A DNA stretch of 37,100 nt, from sequence record NC_049391.1; one strand, given 5' to 3'. Position 1 is the first letter of the stretch. Each line of letters starts with the position of its first letter. Under the pieces are notes generated by a model. It saw only the letters and a program-made list of their open reading frames with translations. It searched no databases and had not been told where the DNA came from. The stretch is from Xuanwuvirus P884B11. Below, one piece after another: positions 1,449 through 31,512 of the stretch. The translations under genes were made by a program, and so were the position numbers.

Positions 1449-3199
1449 CAGAACTCCATAACCGTGAAACGCTCGTTTTCTCCTTCGCCGCCAATTGGTT
1501 CGTTAATGACAGCAAGCATGGTTGCCCACGCAAGGTCGCCGTGGCTGATCCCCCTCGCGCGGTCCGTTTCGTAAGTGATAAAGCCGCCCGGTGTTTTCAC
1601 CTTACGCACGGCGTTAAAGGCTGCGACCAGTTCGCGTTCGGCGCGATCGTATTCCCACCGCCCGGCGCGCATTATTTGCAGCATTTTCAGTACCAGCGAC
1701 CGTTTTGATGACAGCGTGAAGGTGTACGGAATAGCAGCAGGGAAAAACCGTTTCACTATCTGATAAACAGCCTCCCCGTTCCCGCCCGTCACATCAATGC
1801 CGATGTGTTCCACGTTGTAGCGACACGTGAACTCTTCAATGACTCTGGCCTGTTCTTCAAACTCCAGCCCCTGAACGCGTCGCGTCTCCACCGTTCGAAA
1901 ACGGCCACCAGGAACAGCCGGAGGGACCACCACGGACACCGCGCCGCTGTCGCCGTTGCCACTGCTGCCGTTTGCGTCATACCCAATCCATACCGGGCGA
2001 TTCCCCATCGGGCGGGGAGCAAAAGGTTTCCAGTCTTTCCAGTCGTCGTATCCGTCAACACCGCAGCCAATCAGGATATTCAGGTTAAATGCCGATTCCC
2101 CTTCGCGGACAAACTCACACATATAGAGATTGAGGAACTCGTCTTCGGTGTTTTCATCACGAATTTCGTCGATATCGGTGTGTTTCCAGCCGTGATTAAC
2201 CACATCTTCCAGCGTGACAATTTGCCGCCACGTCCGGTCAGGGCAGATAAGCCCGTTATGCAGCGTTTTCCAGTCCACAGAAAAACGCTGGCGTTTATGC
2301 GTGGCCTTTTTCTCGTTCCAGCGGTCGCCGTTCCAGTAGGCGTATGCCTCGTGCGTTTCGGTGGATGGCGTGGAGAAGTAGGTGCGCCGCAGTCCGCTGA
2401 GGGTTGCCATAGCGCCAGCCACCTTGCGCAGTTCAGCAAAGCGGCTGACCCAGAAAAATTCATCAAAATAAAAATTGCCAGTATAGGACTGTGCCGACGC
2501 AGCAGAAGTGCCGAGGAAATGCAGCTCTGCGCCGTTGGAGAGGATGATTTTATCACCCCCTTTCAGCTCCACATCAACTTCAGCCGCGGCCTTCTGAATA
2601 ATGCTTTTAAACTGGAACGCCTGACGACGCGACGCAGACAAAAAAATCTGGTTACGCTGGTAAGGTTGCGCCACATCGTCACGCAGCGCCATCAACAGTG
2701 CTTCCTGTGCAAAATACCAGGTCGCCCCAATCTGTCGGGATTTCAGGATCATCCTGTTACGTATCCCGGCTTCCCTGCAAAGGGTCAGGGCGTCAAACCA
2801 GCCCCGCTGATGCCACTCCAGCCTGCTGATGATTTTTTCCCGCAGTGCGGCAATCTGTTCCGGCGTGAAATGATTTTTAAGTTTTTTCGCCCGGGTTTTC
2901 TTTCCTGTGGCCGTCGCATCCGGCTGGTCATTATGCAGTTTTTTAAGCTGCCGGGTCAGCAGGTCTATTTCCTTGAAGTCACCACCTGTTTTATTCTGTT
3001 TTTCAGTAAGCTGGATGAGGCGCGCATCGATGGACTGCGTGACACGCTGCACGGGTGGCGTTTCATCCCACTGATCGCGTTTTTTCCACGCATAAATCGT
3101 GTTCGGGTTTATTCCCATCAGACGTGATATTTCTGCGGGCGGATAACCCTGCCAGTAAAGTTGTCGCGCACGCTGGCGCACAAAAGCGTCCTGAATCAT
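1448..3199 (-). CDS. P: Terminase large (ATPase) subunit, P2 gpP-like
   Basis: 583-aa ORF divergent from the O-N-M capsid operon, as in P2; N-terminal HTH-like segment followed by a large ATPase/nuclease body. Confidence 0.85.
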   Translation of the reverse strand: MIQDAFVRQRARQLYWQGYPPAEISRLMGINPNTIYAWKKRDQWDETPPVQRVTQSIDARLIQLTEKQNKTGGDFKEIDLLTRQLKKLHNDQPDATATGKKTRAKKLKNHFTPEQIAALREKIISRLEWHQRGWFDALTLCREAGIRNRMILKSRQIGATWYFAQEALLMALRDDVAQPYQRNQIFLSASRRQAFQFKSIIQKAAAEVDVELKGGDKIILSNGAELHFLGTSAASAQSYTGNFYFDEFFWVSRFAELRKVAGAMATLSGLRRTYFSTPSTETHEAYAYWNGDRWNEKKATHKRQRFSVDWKTLHNGLICPDRTWRQIVTLEDVVNHGWKHTDIDEIRDENTEDEFLNLYMCEFVREGESAFNLNILIGCGVDGYDDWKDWKPFAPRPMGNRPVWIGYDANGSSGNGDSGAVSVVVPPAVPGGRFRTVETRRVQGLEFEEQARVIEEFTCRYNVEHIGIDVTGGNGEAVYQIVKRFFPAAIPYTFTLSSKRSLVLKMLQIMRAGRWEYDRAERELVAAFNAVRKVKTPGGFITYETDRARGISHGDLAWATMLAVINEPIGGEGENERFTVMEF

Positions 3200-21847: not shown

Positions 21848-22004
21848 AGCTTCAGCCCCTTGTATCCGTTAAATGATTCGGCAACAATCATCACCCACCA
21901 CGCGCGTAATCTCACCCCTGCGCCGTTCTCCCGCCACGGCGACAACAAAAAGCAGTAACCCCCTCCGCACGCACATGCGACCATGCCGCACAGGGAGGGA
22001 ACAG

Positions 22005-23114
22005 ATGACCGACACCACCATGCAATTGCTCAGTCAGGGCACAGACCCCGTGAAAATGCCGGATTTTGATATTCTCGCGGAGGGTAAAACGCTGTCAGGC
22101 GTGGCAGAGCGCCTGATGAGCCTGTCACTGACCGACAACCGGGGATTTGAGGCGGACCAGCTCACCATCACGCTGGATGATGCAGATGGTCAGTTGCAGC
22201 TACCGCCACGGGGCGCGCGCCTGACGGTTCTCATTGGCTGGAAAGGAGAACCGCTGACAGAAAAAGGCACTTACATTGTTGATGAAATCGCTCACGAAGG
22301 ACCGCCGGACAGGCTGACTGTTTCAGCCAGAAGCGCAGATTTTCGGGATGAATTTAACGTTAAACGTGAGGTGTCCTGGCATGATGTGACCGTTGAGCGT
22401 GTGGTATCCGCCATCGCTCATCGGTACGGTCTGAAACCGCAAATCAGCGAAATGCTGATGGATATCGAAATCGACCACGCCGACCAGACCGAAGAAAGCG
22501 ACATGTCCTTTCTTACGCGCATGGCGGAAATGCTGGGCGCAATCACCACGGTAAAAAGCGGTAATCTGTTATTCATTATGCCAGGCGGTGGCGTGAACGC
22601 ACAGGGCCAACCGTTGCCATCGTTCGCCATCACGCGCAGCAGTGGCGATCGCCATCAGTTCCGCATTGCTGACCGCGAAGCGTATACGGGTGTACGCGCC
22701 TACTGGCTTGATCTTAATTACGGGAAAAAGAAAAAAGTCAGCGTGAAACGCCGCAAACCGCCAAAACCCAAAAAGGAGAAAAGCAGCAGCCGTGAAGGTG
22801 ATTATATGGAAGGCGCGGAAGGAAATGTGTTTGTGTTACGCAAGACTTATCAGAACGAGCAGGCAGCAAGACGCGCAGCGGCGGCAAAGTGGCAGCAGCT
22901 ACAACGCGGAGCCGCATCATTCTCCATCACACTGGCTCGTGGACGCGCAGAACTCTACCCCGAAATGCATGGCACGGTAACAGGATTTAAAAGCGAGATT
23001 GATAATCAGGACTGGATTATTGCGAAAGCCGATCACACCATTGATAACAGTGGCTTTACCACGCAGCTTGAGCTTGAAGCAAAAATTCCGGAATGGATAG
23101 CAGAAACAGAGTGA
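22005..23114 (+). CDS. D: Tail/late gene D protein, P2 gpD-like
   Basis: Start at MTDTTMQ with GGGAGGG RBS (track ORF starts at 21873, overlapping FI); about 369 aa. Confidence 0.8.
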   Translation: MTDTTMQLLSQGTDPVKMPDFDILAEGKTLSGVAERLMSLSLTDNRGFEADQLTITLDDADGQLQLPPRGARLTVLIGWKGEPLTEKGTYIVDEIAHEGPPDRLTVSARSADFRDEFNVKREVSWHDVTVERVVSAIAHRYGLKPQISEMLMDIEIDHADQTEESDMSFLTRMAEMLGAITTVKSGNLLFIMPGGGVNAQGQPLPSFAITRSSGDRHQFRIADREAYTGVRAYWLDLNYGKKKKVSVKRRKPPKPKKEKSSSREGDYMEGAEGNVFVLRKTYQNEQAARRAAAAKWQQLQRGAASFSITLARGRAELYPEMHGTVTGFKSEIDNQDWIIAKADHTIDNSGFTTQLELEAKIPEWIAETE

Positions 23115-23156: not shown

Positions 23157-23417
23157 ATGTTCCGTTGTCCGCTTTGTGGCGCATCTGCCCGTATCCGCAC
23201 CAGTCGTTCGGAAAATGATTCAAACACCGTACGGAAAAAATATTACCAGTGTAACAACCTGGAATGCGGCATAAGTTTCTCAACACTGGAAGCTTTCCAT
23301 AAATTCACATCGAAACACGCCCCCGGCGTTCACTCTTCAGAAGGTATCCCGTGGCATGAGTTGCCAGCTTCACACAGGGGAAACAATCAGATGAGTTTGC
23401 CTTTATCTCAGAATTAA
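23157..23417 (+). CDS. ogr: Late gene transcriptional activator Ogr (zinc-finger), P2 Ogr/186 B-like
   Basis: MFRCPLCG...RTSR...YYQCNNLECGISF: the Cys4 zinc-finger spacing and N-terminus of P2 Ogr. Confidence 0.88.
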   Translation: MFRCPLCGASARIRTSRSENDSNTVRKKYYQCNNLECGISFSTLEAFHKFTSKHAPGVHSSEGIPWHELPASHRGNNQMSLPLSQN

Positions 23418-23607: not shown

Positions 23608-23748
23608 ATGTCGCAAAAATCGCTTACGGCCATCACGTTCTGCGTGACGGCAATCCTCATCATCTGGATGCTGCACGGTTCGCTGTGCGAAATACGGATG
23701 AGCTTCTGGGGAGCGGAGTTTGCGGCGTTCTTACAGTGTAAGCAGTAA
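23608..23748 (+). CDS. Hok/Gef-family type I toxin (small membrane peptide)
   Basis: 46-aa ORF missed by the 60-aa track; hydrophobic TM then SLCEIR...AAF core shared with Hok/Gef; GGAG RBS; upstream hairpin (CTAACCT/AGGTTAG) and strong 3-prime hairpin at 23757-23779. Confidence 0.6.
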   Translation: MSQKSLTAITFCVTAILIIWMLHGSLCEIRMSFWGAEFAAFLQCKQ

Positions 23749-23821
23749 GGAAACCGCGACGGGGGAGCAATCCCCCGTCAATCGGTTGCCAGGGTAAGGT
23801 CGATAAGGCACCCTATCTCAC

Positions 23822-23931
23822 CAATGCCGTTCAGTTAGTTAAGGAATTGAGGTTCGATAGCCCGAACCTCGCGCAGAGGCAATATGACCGAAAGCCTGAT
23901 TCCTTAATGCCCAAGATGAGTCTCTATTCAT
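23822..23931. repeat. Left ~110-bp terminal inverted repeat of the 1.49-kb element
   Basis: Near-identical to the reverse complement of 25201-25307 (a few substitutions, one 3-bp indel); contains nested sub-palindromes TTAAGGAAT...ATTCCTTAA and GAGGTTCG...CGAACCTC. Confidence 0.8.
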
Positions 23932-24157
23932 AAAAGCGCTTAACTACTCGACATTGGCGGTGTATCCCCCGCATTGTCTGAATGCCGCCTCTTACCTTTC
24001 GCGGTCAACTGACGACTTCTAGTTCTAGAACGCCTTGATTTTTTGTACTTGTACATTGAAAAATAACCATAAATTGTTAGCCTGTGCAGTAGACTCAGTG
24101 GTGGTAACTGGTCAGCATGAAGTGTAAAGTGAATAACGAAGCTCTAAAATTATAGGG

Positions 24158-24406
24158 ATGGTCATGAATAATAAGCTAAAGGTAATTGAGTTAAATAGTC
24201 TTGATCTGTTTCGTAAAGAATTACTAACTACTATAAAGCCAGAGAAAGTAGAGAAATTACTTAGATGGTATCTTCAATCATATGGCGGTGTTAATTTCAA
24301 GTTCGGTTATGACAGACCAATTTTTAGAGCGCGAAAGTGCCCAAATGAATGCGGATATAATAACATCAGTGAGATATATCCCCCTCACCAGAAAAATGTA
24401 AAATAG
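24158..24406 (+). CDS. Hypothetical protein; probable N-terminal part of a frameshift-split RES-domain protein
   Basis: 82-aa ORF ending 6 nt before the next ORF; contains PIFRARK, positioned like the conserved N-terminal Arg of RES domains. Confidence 0.5.
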   Translation: MVMNNKLKVIELNSLDLFRKELLTTIKPEKVEKLLRWYLQSYGGVNFKFGYDRPIFRARKCPNECGYNNISEIYPPHQKNVK

Positions 24407-24411
24407 GCCGA

Positions 24412-24990
24412 ATGAATGATGATGGACAAGCTATCTTCTATGGCGCTTATAGTATCGGAACAGCTTTAGCCGAAATTAATGCAAAAGAAGGGGATTATGT
24501 TCACATAGCTCACTTTAAGATGCCGGAAAATTCAGAGTCTGGAATGCGATGTTTTGCTATCGGTGAGGTCTTTAATGTGTATCACGGTGTAAATACAATT
24601 TCAATTGAAGTGTTTAATGAAATTCGCGACATCATTAGCAGAATTGGTAAGGACGACATCCGAGCTTTGCTATCATATTTGTATATGGATGCCCTTTCTG
24701 CTGAGTTGCTTAATAGTATCAATGCCCATGAGGTAAATTATATTTACTCAAGAATTTTTTGCCGTCTTCTTCTTGATAAATACCCTGATGTTGATGGTCT
24801 TATTTATCCTAGCGCTAAAATAAAAGGGGCCTCAAATATCGCTTTGCGCACAGAAACAGTTAAATTGAGAATGCATTTAGTTGCTAATCTTGTGTTTAAA
24901 GTAAATAAAATTTATCCATATGGAATAGTAGATTTCAGTATAGTAAAACAAGCCAAAGGACATACATCAGATGGGCGCATCGTTTGGTGA
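24412..24990 (+). CDS. RES-domain protein (putative NAD-targeting toxin family), C-terminal part
   Basis: 192-aa ORF; the frame is open upstream to give GR-MNDDGQAIFYGAYSIGTALAE (GRxN...Y...E pattern) and later DGLIYPSAKIKGASNIAL (PS motif), the hallmark RES residues as I recall the family. Confidence 0.55.
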   Translation: MNDDGQAIFYGAYSIGTALAEINAKEGDYVHIAHFKMPENSESGMRCFAIGEVFNVYHGVNTISIEVFNEIRDIISRIGKDDIRALLSYLYMDALSAELLNSINAHEVNYIYSRIFCRLLLDKYPDVDGLIYPSAKIKGASNIALRTETVKLRMHLVANLVFKVNKIYPYGIVDFSIVKQAKGHTSDGRIVW

Positions 24991-25200
24991 GCCAAACTTT
25001 TAGTTAGCTGATTGAAAAACCGATGCGTCAGTTTGCACTGCATGTGGTGTATGGGAAGCGCGGGCTTGTAGTGCAGGTCATTTCAGAAGAAGCTAACGAG
25101 AAAGCTTAGACATACTGTGACTACTAAACAAGCAGAAAGCCCGTGTTTATGGGGGCAATCCACACAACAGGCGATGTCGATTAGTTAATACACTTGTATG

Positions 25201-25307
25201 AATAGAGACTCATTTTTGTGCATTAAGGAATCAGGCTTTCAGTCATCTTGCCTCTGCGCGAGGTTCGGGCTATCGAACCTCAATTCCTTAACTGAACTAC
25301 ATTGCCC
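25201..25307. repeat. Right ~110-bp terminal inverted repeat of the 1.49-kb element
   Basis: Reverse complement of the left repeat at 23822-23931. Confidence 0.8.
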
Positions 25308-25502
25308 TATCTCACAGCTCTAAATGCAAAAATCCCATGAAACTGTGGGTATTTCATCACACACTGACACTGCTCTACCTTTCTATATGTATCACTCTAA
25401 ACCAGTTAATCAATTGGCACTTATCAACAACAAAAAATCTGATAAAATCAAAATGTTTTGTAACAAATTTCAGCTTGTAGTGTTCCAAAGGAGACGGATT
25501 AC

Positions 25503-25835
25503 ATGGCATTAATCAAATGTCCTGAATGCCAGAAAGAGGTCAGCGATTCAGCATTATGTTGCCCTGCTTGTGGTAAACAACTGAAAAAACTTAAGCGTTC
25601 ATTTTTTGGAAAACTCATTAAATGGGCTTTTATATTTTTTAATATTTTTATGATCTATACACTTTTAGTTGGACTAGGAGGCGCTGATGAAATAATAAAC
25701 AATACCACATCCGATGCCGAAAAAGCTGGGGCAGTTATTGGTACGGGCTTAGGTTTAATTGTCATTGGAGGCTTATGGGTTATTGGCGATATCATTATCG
25801 GAATTTTAGTATTTCTTACTAAACCAAAGGGATAA
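25503..25835 (+). CDS. Small zinc-ribbon inner-membrane protein (hypothetical)
   Basis: 110 aa; CPEC...CCPACG zinc ribbon, then two hydrophobic helices; AAGGAG RBS; AT-rich codon usage unlike the phage core. Confidence 0.6.
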   Translation: MALIKCPECQKEVSDSALCCPACGKQLKKLKRSFFGKLIKWAFIFFNIFMIYTLLVGLGGADEIINNTTSDAEKAGAVIGTGLGLIVIGGLWVIGDIIIGILVFLTKPKG

Positions 25836-25839
25836 TAAA

Positions 25840-26733
25840 ATGAAAAATATGATTTTTACTATAGGTGCATTATTTATATCAATTAGTGTACTGCCTGTTC
25901 ACGCAGCAACTGAACATAAGAATTTCAATGCAGTGCTCCAGTGCCGAGCGATAGAAAACAATAAAGACAGACTTTCTTGTTATGATAAGTCAATACAACC
26001 GACTCGAACGAAAGTTGCTGAAAAATTTGAAAGCAGGGATCAATGCCCTGATGAGAAAGATGATGACAAACGTTTATCTTGTTATGATCGTTTTTTTTCT
26101 CCAACATTTACTCCATCTGTAAACTCAAAATCTAAAACGGAAAAGCTAGTAACAACAGAGGCTCAGCAACCAAATCTTTCTGAAATATCTAAATGCCGAG
26201 CAGAAAATGATAAAGAAACCAGACTAAACTGCTACGATAAACTATTCCCACAGGATGAAGCTGTTCAATCTGAATCACAATTAGAGAAAGCCACAGATGC
26301 AGGAAAATGGCACACGTCCATTACTACATCGCCAATTGATGATTCGAAAAATGTAATTTTATCGTTAGAAAGTGATGATTATATCAGAACTCCATTTGGA
26401 GAAGCTGTTACTCCCACTCTGTTTATAGCTTGCCGAGAAAAGAAAACCGAAGTATTTCTTAGTTGGGATGTATATTTAGGCCTTGAACAAACCAGCATGC
26501 TGTATCGTCTTGATAAACAGAAAGCAGTTGAAAGAAACTGGCTAATATCTACAGATACAAAGGCTGTTTTTTATAAAGGTAATGATATTGATTTCATAAG
26601 AAAACTTGCCAACTCACATAAAATGTACACAAAAATAACCCCCTATAATGAAAGCCCTGTAAGTGCAACTTTCAATTTAAGCGGCCTGTCAAATGCACTA
26701 AAACCGCTTCAAGATGCTTGTAACTGGAAATAG
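25840..26733 (+). CDS. Secreted (periplasmic) protein with three tandem Cys-pair repeats (hypothetical)
   Basis: 297 aa; signal peptide ending VHA-A; three copies of C-x11-C-YD(K/R) (QCRAIENNKDRLSCYDK, QCPDEKDDDKRLSCYDR, KCRAENDKETRLNCYDK); starts 5 nt after the previous ORF; AT-rich. Confidence 0.6.
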   Translation: MKNMIFTIGALFISISVLPVHAATEHKNFNAVLQCRAIENNKDRLSCYDKSIQPTRTKVAEKFESRDQCPDEKDDDKRLSCYDRFFSPTFTPSVNSKSKTEKLVTTEAQQPNLSEISKCRAENDKETRLNCYDKLFPQDEAVQSESQLEKATDAGKWHTSITTSPIDDSKNVILSLESDDYIRTPFGEAVTPTLFIACREKKTEVFLSWDVYLGLEQTSMLYRLDKQKAVERNWLISTDTKAVFYKGNDIDFIRKLANSHKMYTKITPYNESPVSATFNLSGLSNALKPLQDACNWK

Positions 26734-27071: not shown

Positions 27072-28076
27072 TTAATCCCCCGTGGACACTGCGTGGACAC
27101 TTACGCCACCTTTCAGCGGATTAAGGGCCACCGCATCCTGCAGGTAATCCGGTGCAAAATGCGCATATGCCATTGTTTGCTGAATGGTTGCGTGACCAAG
27201 AATCTTCTGAAGCGCAATAATGTTTCCTCCGTTCATCACAAAATGGCTGGCGAACGTATGCCGCAGCACATGTGCAGCCTGGCCTTTTGGTAAATCGGGC
27301 TTAACTCTTTTCAGTGCCAGGCAGAATTCCCGGTACTTCACCTCAAACAAGCCGCCTGTTTCTCTGGTTTTGATCGCCTCACAAACTGCCTGCGAAATTG
27401 GCACTGTTCTCTTCCGGCCATTTTTGGTTTCAAGAAACGTTACACGGTTATGAACTATCTGTTCACCACGAAGCTTACAAGCTTCACTCCAGCGCGCCCC
27501 TGTGCTTAAACACAAAAGCGCAACACGCCAGTAGTCGCCCTCCAGTGTATCGAGCAATAGCGCCACTTCCTTCTGTGACAGGAACGCCATTTCTCGTGGA
27601 GATACATAAAGAATAGAAATTCCCCTTACTGGATGTTCTGCATCCCAAAGACCTATTTTTTTCAGCACGGTAAACATTCCGGATAACCGATTCATGTACC
27701 TGTTAGCAGATGACGGTTTCAATCCTTCAGCTATCTTTTGAGAACGCCACGCGATAATTTTCAGCTTATCAAGATCCACAGCCTGCATATCAGCGCCAAG
27801 CTCATTGATTATGTTGCGCAGTTGTTTTCGGTCTTCTTCCGCCTTACGCCTGTGCTGGCCGTGATACATCCACCACAACTCAAGCAAATCATTTAGCGTT
27901 CGACGATCACGGTAGCCCTGTATATATTCCCGCTTTTCAGCGTTCGCCATGATGTAGCGTTCAGTGGCCACCGCTACCGATTTTTTGTCAAATACCTTAC
28001 GCACGCGCTTTCCCTTGCGTCCGTTCGGCCTGATGTCCAGCAAATAACGACCATCTTCGAGCTTCTTAATCGACAT
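27072..28076 (-). CDS. int: Tyrosine integrase, P2 Int family
   Basis: Start at MSIKKLEDGRY (P2 Int begins MAIKKLDDGRY); C-terminal ARWSEA...HVLRHTFASH...LGHATIQQTMAYAH catalytic motifs (R, H-x-x-R, Y). Confidence 0.9.
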   Translation of the reverse strand: MSIKKLEDGRYLLDIRPNGRKGKRVRKVFDKKSVAVATERYIMANAEKREYIQGYRDRRTLNDLLELWWMYHGQHRRKAEEDRKQLRNIINELGADMQAVDLDKLKIIAWRSQKIAEGLKPSSANRYMNRLSGMFTVLKKIGLWDAEHPVRGISILYVSPREMAFLSQKEVALLLDTLEGDYWRVALLCLSTGARWSEACKLRGEQIVHNRVTFLETKNGRKRTVPISQAVCEAIKTRETGGLFEVKYREFCLALKRVKPDLPKGQAAHVLRHTFASHFVMNGGNIIALQKILGHATIQQTMAYAHFAPDYLQDAVALNPLKGGVSVHAVSTGD

Positions 28077-28172
28077 TACGAAGCCCTCCAATGAACCGCT
28101 CTACAATTTCTCCAGCCTCTTTCCAGCAATAATCAGACCAGACAAAAAGCAGGTCTAACCAGTTTTCTGGCC

Positions 28173-31190: not shown

Positions 31191-31512
31191 GAAACCAGAA
31201 CATGCACACACAAAAAAACCGCTTGCCATGCCGCAATCAGTCAGGTTACATTTCCGCTGCACCTCACAAAACGGGTGCCGGGTTTCGCAGCCTGCTGACT
31301 ACACAAGCGCACAACCGCGCCAGCGGTTTTTTTGTGCGTACTGTATTGCCACGTTTTTTTCGCGTCAGAATTATGGCGGGGCGTACGGGGCCGACTTCGG
31401 TCGGGCCGGGTTCTTGTGTAGCCGGTACTGCGAACCTCGTACGTCTCGCCACCCACAGTTTCGCAGCTCTGGATGGTGAGTTTTCACAACTTACTACACA
31501 AGGGGCCACACC

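Follow-up and report, generated by a model that had tools for sequence, protein, structure and literature searches.

Two IS4-type miniature elements around a RES-domain gene: a probable non-autonomous composite transposon in the P2-like phage Xuanwuvirus P884B11

The DNA of Xuanwuvirus P884B11 analysed here (NC_049391.1; 37,100 nt, hereafter the window) carries between 23811 and 25318 a segment of about 1.5 kb in which a RES-domain gene is enclosed by inverted repeats. A first-pass annotation, made from the letters alone, described this segment as a compact, mobile-looking toxin or defence module that could not be placed in a named element family. The locus therefore raises the question of what kind of element it is, how it reached its present position and what it carries. 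In this study, the boundaries, termini, relatives and cargo of the segment were analyzed, and positions 23822-25304 are very probably a non-autonomous composite transposon, in which two inverted miniature inverted-repeat transposable elements (MITEs) of about 135 bp, derived from the IS4 subgroup of insertion sequences (ISs), surround passenger DNA.

The inverted arms were located at 23822-23956 (135 nt) and 25172-25304 (133 nt). In a gapped alignment of one arm with the other, 120 of 137 columns were identical, with one indel of 4 bp and two of 1 bp, and a repeat search returned collinear inverted segments of 78 nt (96%), 24 nt (92%) and 16 nt (88%). The inverted copies first placed at 23822-23931 and 25201-25307 are thus real, and their limits had to be redrawn: the arms are longer, and an end at 25307 runs 3 nt into the flanking direct repeat. 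That repeat, CCCTATCTCAC, is exactly 11 bp long and abuts both arm termini, as had been claimed, with a left copy at 23811-23821 and a right copy, returned by the repeat search, at 25305-25315. An uninterrupted site in related P2-like phages, which the first-pass annotation had named as the comparison to make, was found in PhiR44_2 and in the Citrobacter phage Shae_phiSM, where both flanks are as in the window and are joined over a single CCCTATCTCAC. A single CCCTATCTCAC between the same flanks in these phages shows that the block was truly inserted and that 11 bp of the target site were duplicated; the inserted material consists of 1,483 bp (23822-25304) and one additional 11-mer. No transposase open reading frame (ORF) lies between the arms, the interior being made up of the RES gene and a gene remnant only. 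The GC content of the interior is 33-39%, against 48-56% in the upstream phage genes, and the neighbouring downstream cargo is just as AT-rich as the element. The lack of a transposase and the AT-rich interior had both been seen at first pass, and with an 11-bp duplication and known empty sites the description as a compact module of mobile type with a RES gene holds.

The termini of the block were compared with those of K-12 IS4 (insG), which are TAATGCCGATCAGTTAAGGA and TAATGCCAGTCAGTTAAGCA and which are flanked by repeats of 11-12 bp. The right terminus, CAATGTAGTTCAGTTAAGGA, agrees at 16/20 positions, ungapped and in register with the junction. The left outer terminal repeat (23822-23845, plus strand) reads CAATGCCGTTC[AGTT]AGTTAAGGA and agrees at 18/20 once its 4-bp internal duplication is allowed as an indel; the unit ends of three other loci, L013, L021 and L022, described below, also agree at 18/20. 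Members of the IS4 subgroup are defined by ends of the form -AATR--------WTW---- and by direct repeats of 10-13 bp (PMC2266710, Table 1). AAT stands at positions 2-4, G at position 5 and TTA at 14-16 in both outer ends, CAATGCCGTTCAGTTAAGGA and CAATGTAGTTCAGTTAAGGA, and likewise in the inner end CAATGTCGAGTAGTTAAGCG; the left outer end fits only with its 4-bp duplication discounted, whereas the ends of the right arm and of L013, L021 and L022 need no adjustment. The duplications are 11 bp in the window and in both solo copies from Rahnella (see below), and 11-12 bp but imperfect in L022. The single-ORF DDE transposase with a YREK motif that also belongs to the definition is missing between the arms, and the element is therefore an IS4-subgroup derivative and not an IS. 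Outside E. coli, both termini of an IS on a Ralstonia megaplasmid read AATGCCGTTCAGTTAAGG and are 18/18 identical to the unit terminus; the transposase of this IS shares 37% identity with InsG. The termini of the element, CAATGCCGTTCAGTTAAGG, thus match IS4-type ends of E. coli, Ralstonia and, as described below, Rahnella. The earlier view that no named family could be assigned is superseded, the ends being IS4-subgroup ends and each arm an IS4-derived MITE.

The latter point follows from the arms themselves and from their relatives. The left arm (23822-23956, plus strand) is a MITE-like unit of 135 bp that has an IS4-type end at either extremity, and the right arm (25172-25304, minus strand) is a 133-bp unit in inverted orientation with the outer end CAATGTAGTTCAGTTAAGGA and an inner end around 25172-25192. 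In each arm the inner edge is a second IS4-type end of opposite orientation; that of the left arm (23937-23956) reads CAATGTCGAGTAGTTAAGCG on the minus strand and agrees with the IS4 end at 14/20. Arm homology stops at this inner end, and alignment scores further inward were no better than those of shuffles. The units measure 133-143 bp. Outer and inner end agree at 11-15 of 20 positions in those five phage-borne units that were scored in register, whereas in the Rahnella copies the two ends are a perfect match over about 19 bp. A first plasmid BLAST with the window arm was empty, and relatives were found with short end probes and through a distant relative on a Duffyella plasmid, which led to two Rahnella plasmids with solo copies. 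Each solo copy is about 143 bp long, has perfect terminal repeats of about 19 bp and its own 11-bp duplication, namely TCGGTTACGCC in R. aquatilis PRA1 and AGCCAGACGGC in R. aceris pPlas1, the latter copy being located between nifQ and a flavodoxin gene. Both align with the window arms over the whole unit. The repeat is thus not confined to the window, which the first-pass annotation had named as grounds for giving up insertion, and the different flanks and different duplicated 11-mers that it had expected of a mobile family are present in Rahnella, with further sites in phages.

A matching autonomous element also exists. The end of an IS4-family IS of Rahnella victoriana, whose transposase is 51% identical to E. 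coli InsG, is 19/19 identical to the terminal repeat of the R. aquatilis solo MITE, and each arm is accordingly a complete IS4-derived MITE; an IS partner with the CAATG end of the phage type was not found. The end of the Rahnella victoriana IS is palindromic (TAATGCCGGTCAC-TTAAG-GTGACCGGCATT), a palindromic end of this kind is also present in K-12 IS4 and in the Ralstonia IS, and the MITE looks like an expanded version of it. In the two Rahnella solo MITEs (L043, 2504-2647; L044, 2502-2645) the terminal repeats are perfectly complementary within a copy and differ between copies in a compensatory manner (GCCGG/CCGGC versus GCTGG/CCAGC), which suggests that the two ends of one copy are kept identical.

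The alternative that survives best is a single IS-derived mobile insertion cassette (MIC) of the MIC231 type, with long ends that are copies of one structured IS end and never were independent MITEs. MIC231 cassettes, known from the IS231 subgroup of the IS4 family in the Bacillus cereus group, have IS4-family ends around non-transposase genes and are mobilised in trans (PMC2266710). An arm could be such an expanded IS end, as the E. coli, Ralstonia and Rahnella elements already possess a repeat joined directly to its inverted complement, and the individual arms of the window have no duplications of their own. Free solo units with their own 11-bp duplications show, by contrast, that the unit moves as a MITE, and a single unit is linked to RES in L013, which has no second unit, and in L021, where the other side is hidden by the contig end. 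We regard the cassette as decidedly unlikely, and its distinction from a pair of MITEs is mostly historical, the transposition chemistry being the same.

The unit was found with RES at other positions in phage genomes. In an Enterobacter-type P2-like prophage (L013), one unit stands directly after ogr, at the junction of ...CCGCAAATGCGG with CAATG, and is followed by RES without a right arm. In a different phage (L021), one unit stands after a 567-aa tail gene, at the junction of ...CCCGCATAATGCG with CAATG, and is followed by RES, at whose stop codon the contig ends. A short contig with ogr on one side (L022) holds a complete element of 2,397 bp, in which the two arms enclose RES together with a second gene, encoding 305 aa. 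When six phage-borne units were aligned, all started exactly at CAATG and the flanks outside were unrelated across three sites. Enterobacter phage ENT4 retains an intact ogr terminator, CCCCGCAAATGCGGGGCTTTTTT, which is the empty site of the L013 and L022 insertions. Relative to ogr, the interior of L022 is inverted with respect to that of L013 and the junction lies at the identical nucleotide; recombination of one arm with the other, or another insertion into this site, could be the cause.

Copies of the window type were also encountered. Scans of IMG/VR yielded L007, L008-L010 and L021, and a metagenome scan yielded L011 and L012. The insertion in L008-L010 and L011 is identical to that of the window, L012 has two arms at the window spacing with unconfirmed flanks, and L007 was rejected as a chance match in a coding region; the contigs L031-L036 from P0037 begin inside RES and are uninformative on arms. 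Among 5,426 complete E. coli genomes, 66 contain the element, each with exactly two arm copies and the same flanks. The identical site and the two arms in all 66 carriers indicate a single insertion event, so that in E. coli the element is one ancestral insertion inherited with its prophage and not a dispersed repeat; the dispersed MITE-like family envisaged at first pass was not seen there.

Several insertions of the MITE or IS lie in or beside GC-rich terminator-like hairpins (CCCCGCAAATGCGGGG, CCCGCATAATGCG, CTGGCCACCAGGCC), the loci being L013 2637-2648, L021 about 1181-1193, L022 3009-3020, L028 2480-2500, L045 2180-2200 and L030 2705-2730. The Duffyella copy and the Rahnella victoriana IS have a near-identical left flank, CTGGC(C)ACCAGGCC followed by TAATG. 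These observations hint at a strong target-arm specificity, which has been reported for some members of the IS4 subgroup (PMC2266710).

Site-specific or homologous recombination at the ogr-int hotspot, with the 11-mer as recombination core, was weighed as a second alternative and appears very improbable. Phage Chuche diverges from the window no more than 2 bp from the 11-mer, so that a boundary between conserved and variable DNA lies here, and the opposite orientation of the L013 and L022 interiors at one junction nucleotide would have recombination acting on the arms. Against this, the IS4-type ends are in exact register with the junctions, the duplication has a length typical of IS4, solo units are bordered by different 11-mers at unrelated sites and thus have no common core, and the element contains no recombinase gene.

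In a third alternative the arms are a locally evolved palindromic regulatory structure that pairs in RNA and sequesters the ends of the RES mRNA, as the first-pass annotation had raised. Nested stem-loops, also described there, are predicted by folding in each arm, with z about -2.5 against shuffled controls. The left arm (23822-23956) contains an internal hairpin, GAGGTTCG/CGAACCTC, and a nested stem, TTAAGG/CCTTAA, both partly conserved across relatives; two hairpin pairs show compensatory changes (UA to CG) in the Rahnella and Duffyella copies, three mutually related sequences with few independent events, so that the changes are suggestive only. Each arm thus folds better than chance and one hairpin has changed in a compensatory way. 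Arms also exist without RES, as solo MITEs, and RES exists without arms at many loci. The empty sites indicate that the whole block arrived at once, and a consensus scan returned neither promoter nor terminator in the arms. RES loci that have no arms are homologous to the window from 24038 onward, a point downstream of the left arm, and a native RES transcript therefore probably lacks this arm. Pairing of the arms in the mRNA is scarcely credible on these grounds, and the arm structure is accounted for by the MITE and its IS-end palindromy. At the thresholds for gathering scores, no Rfam family matched the arms, and the matches in the window were those of C4 and isrK elsewhere.

Several other types of element were dismissed on their features: IS200/IS605-type and PATE elements generate neither terminal inverted repeats nor duplications, a single attC without any duplication is typical of integron cassettes, the duplications made by Tn3 and Tn7 ends measure 5 bp, and invertible segments require a recombinase, which is absent here.

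The composite of two IS4-derived MITEs therefore remains the explanation that we favour: two inverted ends surround passenger genes, a duplication flanks the whole and the empty site is known. Given how the element is built and how IS4-family elements are known to behave, we infer that it was most probably mobilised in trans by an IS4-subgroup transposase using the outermost ends. Such a DDE transposase would recognise the two outermost IS4-type ends, excise the segment and insert it into phage DNA downstream of hok, and staggered cuts 11 bp apart would give rise to the duplication of CCCTATCTCAC. The original cargo would have been two independent single-gene modules of the defence-island kind, namely a stand-alone RES enzyme, by its family presumably an NAD+ phosphorylase, and a protein of 289-305 aa with a weak zinc-ribbon match. 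The E. coli lineage lost the second gene by a deletion of about 0.9 kb, and the RES gene of the window copy is in addition frameshifted.

Several observations weigh against this explanation. Only one insertion event is seen in E. coli (66 of 5,426 genomes, all at the same site), and two exact-pattern scans of 100,044 representative genomes gave zero matches, from which it follows that the family is rare and its copy number low. The flanking repeats of L022 are imperfect (9 of 11-12 positions), L013 is without a right arm and L021 is cut off by the contig end. Between the outer ends of the window element and E. coli IS4 ends there are 2-4 mismatches in 20 positions, and together with the 4-bp duplication in the left repeat and the sole insertion event in E. 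coli this may mean that the window copy is now immobile.

The RES-domain gene of the element (24164-24990, plus strand; Pfam RES PF08808, E=5.4e-12) encodes 275 aa when intact. In the window it is frameshifted by the deletion of one C at about 24386 (CTCCACC to CTCACC), which splits the gene; the deletion may have arisen by mutation or may reflect an error in the sequence. Other E. coli copies have an intact RES gene of 828 bp (275-aa allele WP_044869336), and L005 differs from the window by that single base only. The first-pass annotation had recognised RES and had stated that the interior encoded only RES reading frames; the two frames are one 275-aa gene broken by a 1-base deletion, and the remnant of a second gene is present at 25037-25109. 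Residues R83, Y93, E104, S217 and N225 are invariant across the family, and the RefSeq name of the cargo protein is RES family NAD+ phosphorylase. RES enzymes phosphorolyse NAD+ and are usually toxins paired with a helix-turn-helix (HTH) antitoxin (PMC9503650). In common with RES-Xre toxin-antitoxin modules, the cargo protein has a Pfam RES domain with the invariant R, Y, E, S and N; it differs in having an extra N-terminal stretch of about 75 aa and no adjacent Xre/HTH antitoxin. No antitoxin gene of the Xre/HTH (DUF2384) type was found among the ORFs of the element or beside RES homologues in the contexts examined. Searches of PADLOC-DB v2 and NCBIfam gave no significant match for the RES protein, and PADLOC gave none for the protein of the partner gene either; a sequence search of the PDB returned no close solved structure for RES and nothing useful for the partner.

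The family of the 275-aa protein is spread across Gammaproteobacteria, and only its closest relatives have arms, most members being armless and in unrelated contexts. Stand-alone genes of 275-279 aa (L014, L015, L017-L020 and L023-L027) were located between YadA-anchor and Hcp genes, beside mlrA, in a MobA/TraD region resembling an integrative and conjugative element, and in an integrase island with a zinc-ribbon partner. A region upstream of RES (24038-24157, plus strand) travels with the gene, homology to the armless loci L014 and L023-L027 starting at element position 217-218, and is presumed to bear the promoter, although a consensus scan of this region returned no promoter.

A 3' remnant of the second cargo gene, encoding a C-terminus ...LHVVYGKRGLVVQVISEEANEKA with its stop codon, is located at 25037-25109 (plus strand), with the deletion junction at about 25036/25037. 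The window element corresponds to the L022 type minus about 0.9 kb, and every one of the 66 E. coli copies is of this deleted form. When complete, the gene encodes a protein of 289-305 aa with a weak, below-threshold C-terminal zinc-ribbon match and otherwise no Pfam assignment, and the partner gene of L022 had no match to an HTH family. Its relatives form a family of 283-305 aa, 57-94% identical across many Proteobacteria (L022 1891-2808, L023 3943-4818, L037 3001-3870, L040 3001-3852). They occur alone in contexts resembling defence islands: in Klebsiella the neighbour is a reverse transcriptase, within an island from which an AlpA-family protein is encoded as well, and in Vibrio the neighbours are SIR2-like and ADP-ribosyltransferase genes. 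Because it is widespread on its own, the second gene is an independent passenger and not the antitoxin of RES. An obligate antitoxin role is ruled out, as the 66 E. coli genomes keep an intact RES without the second gene and the family is widespread alone. The second-gene family is a candidate uncharacterised defence gene.

Among known systems, IS4 and its subgroup share with the element the terminal repeat AATGCCG.TCAGTTAAGG, the end signature, an 11-bp duplication within the range of 10-13 bp and the palindromic architecture of the ends, whereas the element lacks the DDE/YREK transposase, has structured units of about 135 bp as ends instead of repeats of about 18-20 bp, and carries passenger genes. 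With MIC231 it has in common IS4-family ends flanking non-transposase passenger genes, but MIC231 belongs to another subgroup (CAT... ends, repeats of 10-12 bp) and occurs in another phylum; in 2008, modularity of the MIC type was described as unseen in IS4 subgroups other than IS231 (PMC2266710). The element also works like known MITE-bounded composites, which include Acinetobacter MITE pairs flanking class 1 integrons, MITE-297 pairs and Tn3-derived TIME composites (PMC6382973, PMC4133298). There too, two non-autonomous miniature elements enclose genes unrelated to them and act as a composite transposon does, the entire structure being flanked by a duplication (PMC6382973). These composites involve other MITE families and carry resistance genes or integrons on plasmids, in contrast to the IS4-derived MITE, the 11-bp duplication and the RES gene found here in temperate phages. 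Their duplications are of 5 bp. No description of the present MITE or cassette was found in the full-text literature, ISfinder being outside that search.

The surroundings of the element are the late-gene end of a P2-like phage, with gpD at 21873-23114 and ogr at 23157-23417. Just downstream of ogr lies a Hok/Gef-family toxin gene of 46 aa (23608-23748; Pfam HOK_GEF); its terminator-like hairpin (23757-23780) precedes the insertion site by about 30 bp. Accessory genes fill the interval up to the integrase gene (27072-28091, minus strand). Directly downstream of the element, window 25503-26733 encodes a small membrane protein with a zinc ribbon (110 aa) and a protein resembling VasI/TagO (297 aa; Pfam VasI, E=6e-26). 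This AT-rich hotspot cargo occurs in the empty-site phages too. In phage Chuche (L003, about 3110-3125) the flank is common with the window (23811-23823) up to CCCTATCTCACAG and is followed by other cargo, Com and a DNA methyltransferase. The boundary of conserved and variable DNA in the ogr-int hotspot, as seen between Chuche and the window, thus lies at most 2 bp from the insertion point, which could be a coincidence or mark a recombination-prone site. Further along, adjoining Rfam matches above the gathering score were obtained on the plus strand for isrK (64 bits) and C4 antisense RNA (83 bits), at 31259-31333 and 31369-31456.

Phage genomes are regarded as poor in transposable elements (bioRxiv 10.64898/2026.02.27.708500), and the turnover of accessory genes in the hotspots of P2-like phages is thought to be mainly recombinational. 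The element clearly exemplifies a transposon that lacks a transposase and has brought a gene of the toxin or defence type to three or more sites in temperate phage genomes, and passenger-carrying cassettes are thereby extended to the IS4 subgroup. It also provides an annotation signature, consisting of CAATGCCGTTCAGTTAAGG ends, 11-bp duplications and palindromic units of about 135 bp, and points to two uncharacterised single-gene families as worth anti-phage testing; the practical consequences are modest. A bolder proposal, which we consider possible but rather unlikely, is that pairs of IS4-derived MITEs actively shuttle single-gene modules of toxin or defence type, such as the stand-alone RES enzyme and the 289-aa zinc-ribbon protein, by capturing them and delivering them to temperate phages at harmless terminator-adjacent positions. 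The 275-aa RES protein, which stands alone, could itself be an uncatalogued one-gene abortive-infection defence. If the shuttle were real, hotspot cargo would be exchanged between phages by a transposition-based route, alongside the recombinational swapping that is now assumed.

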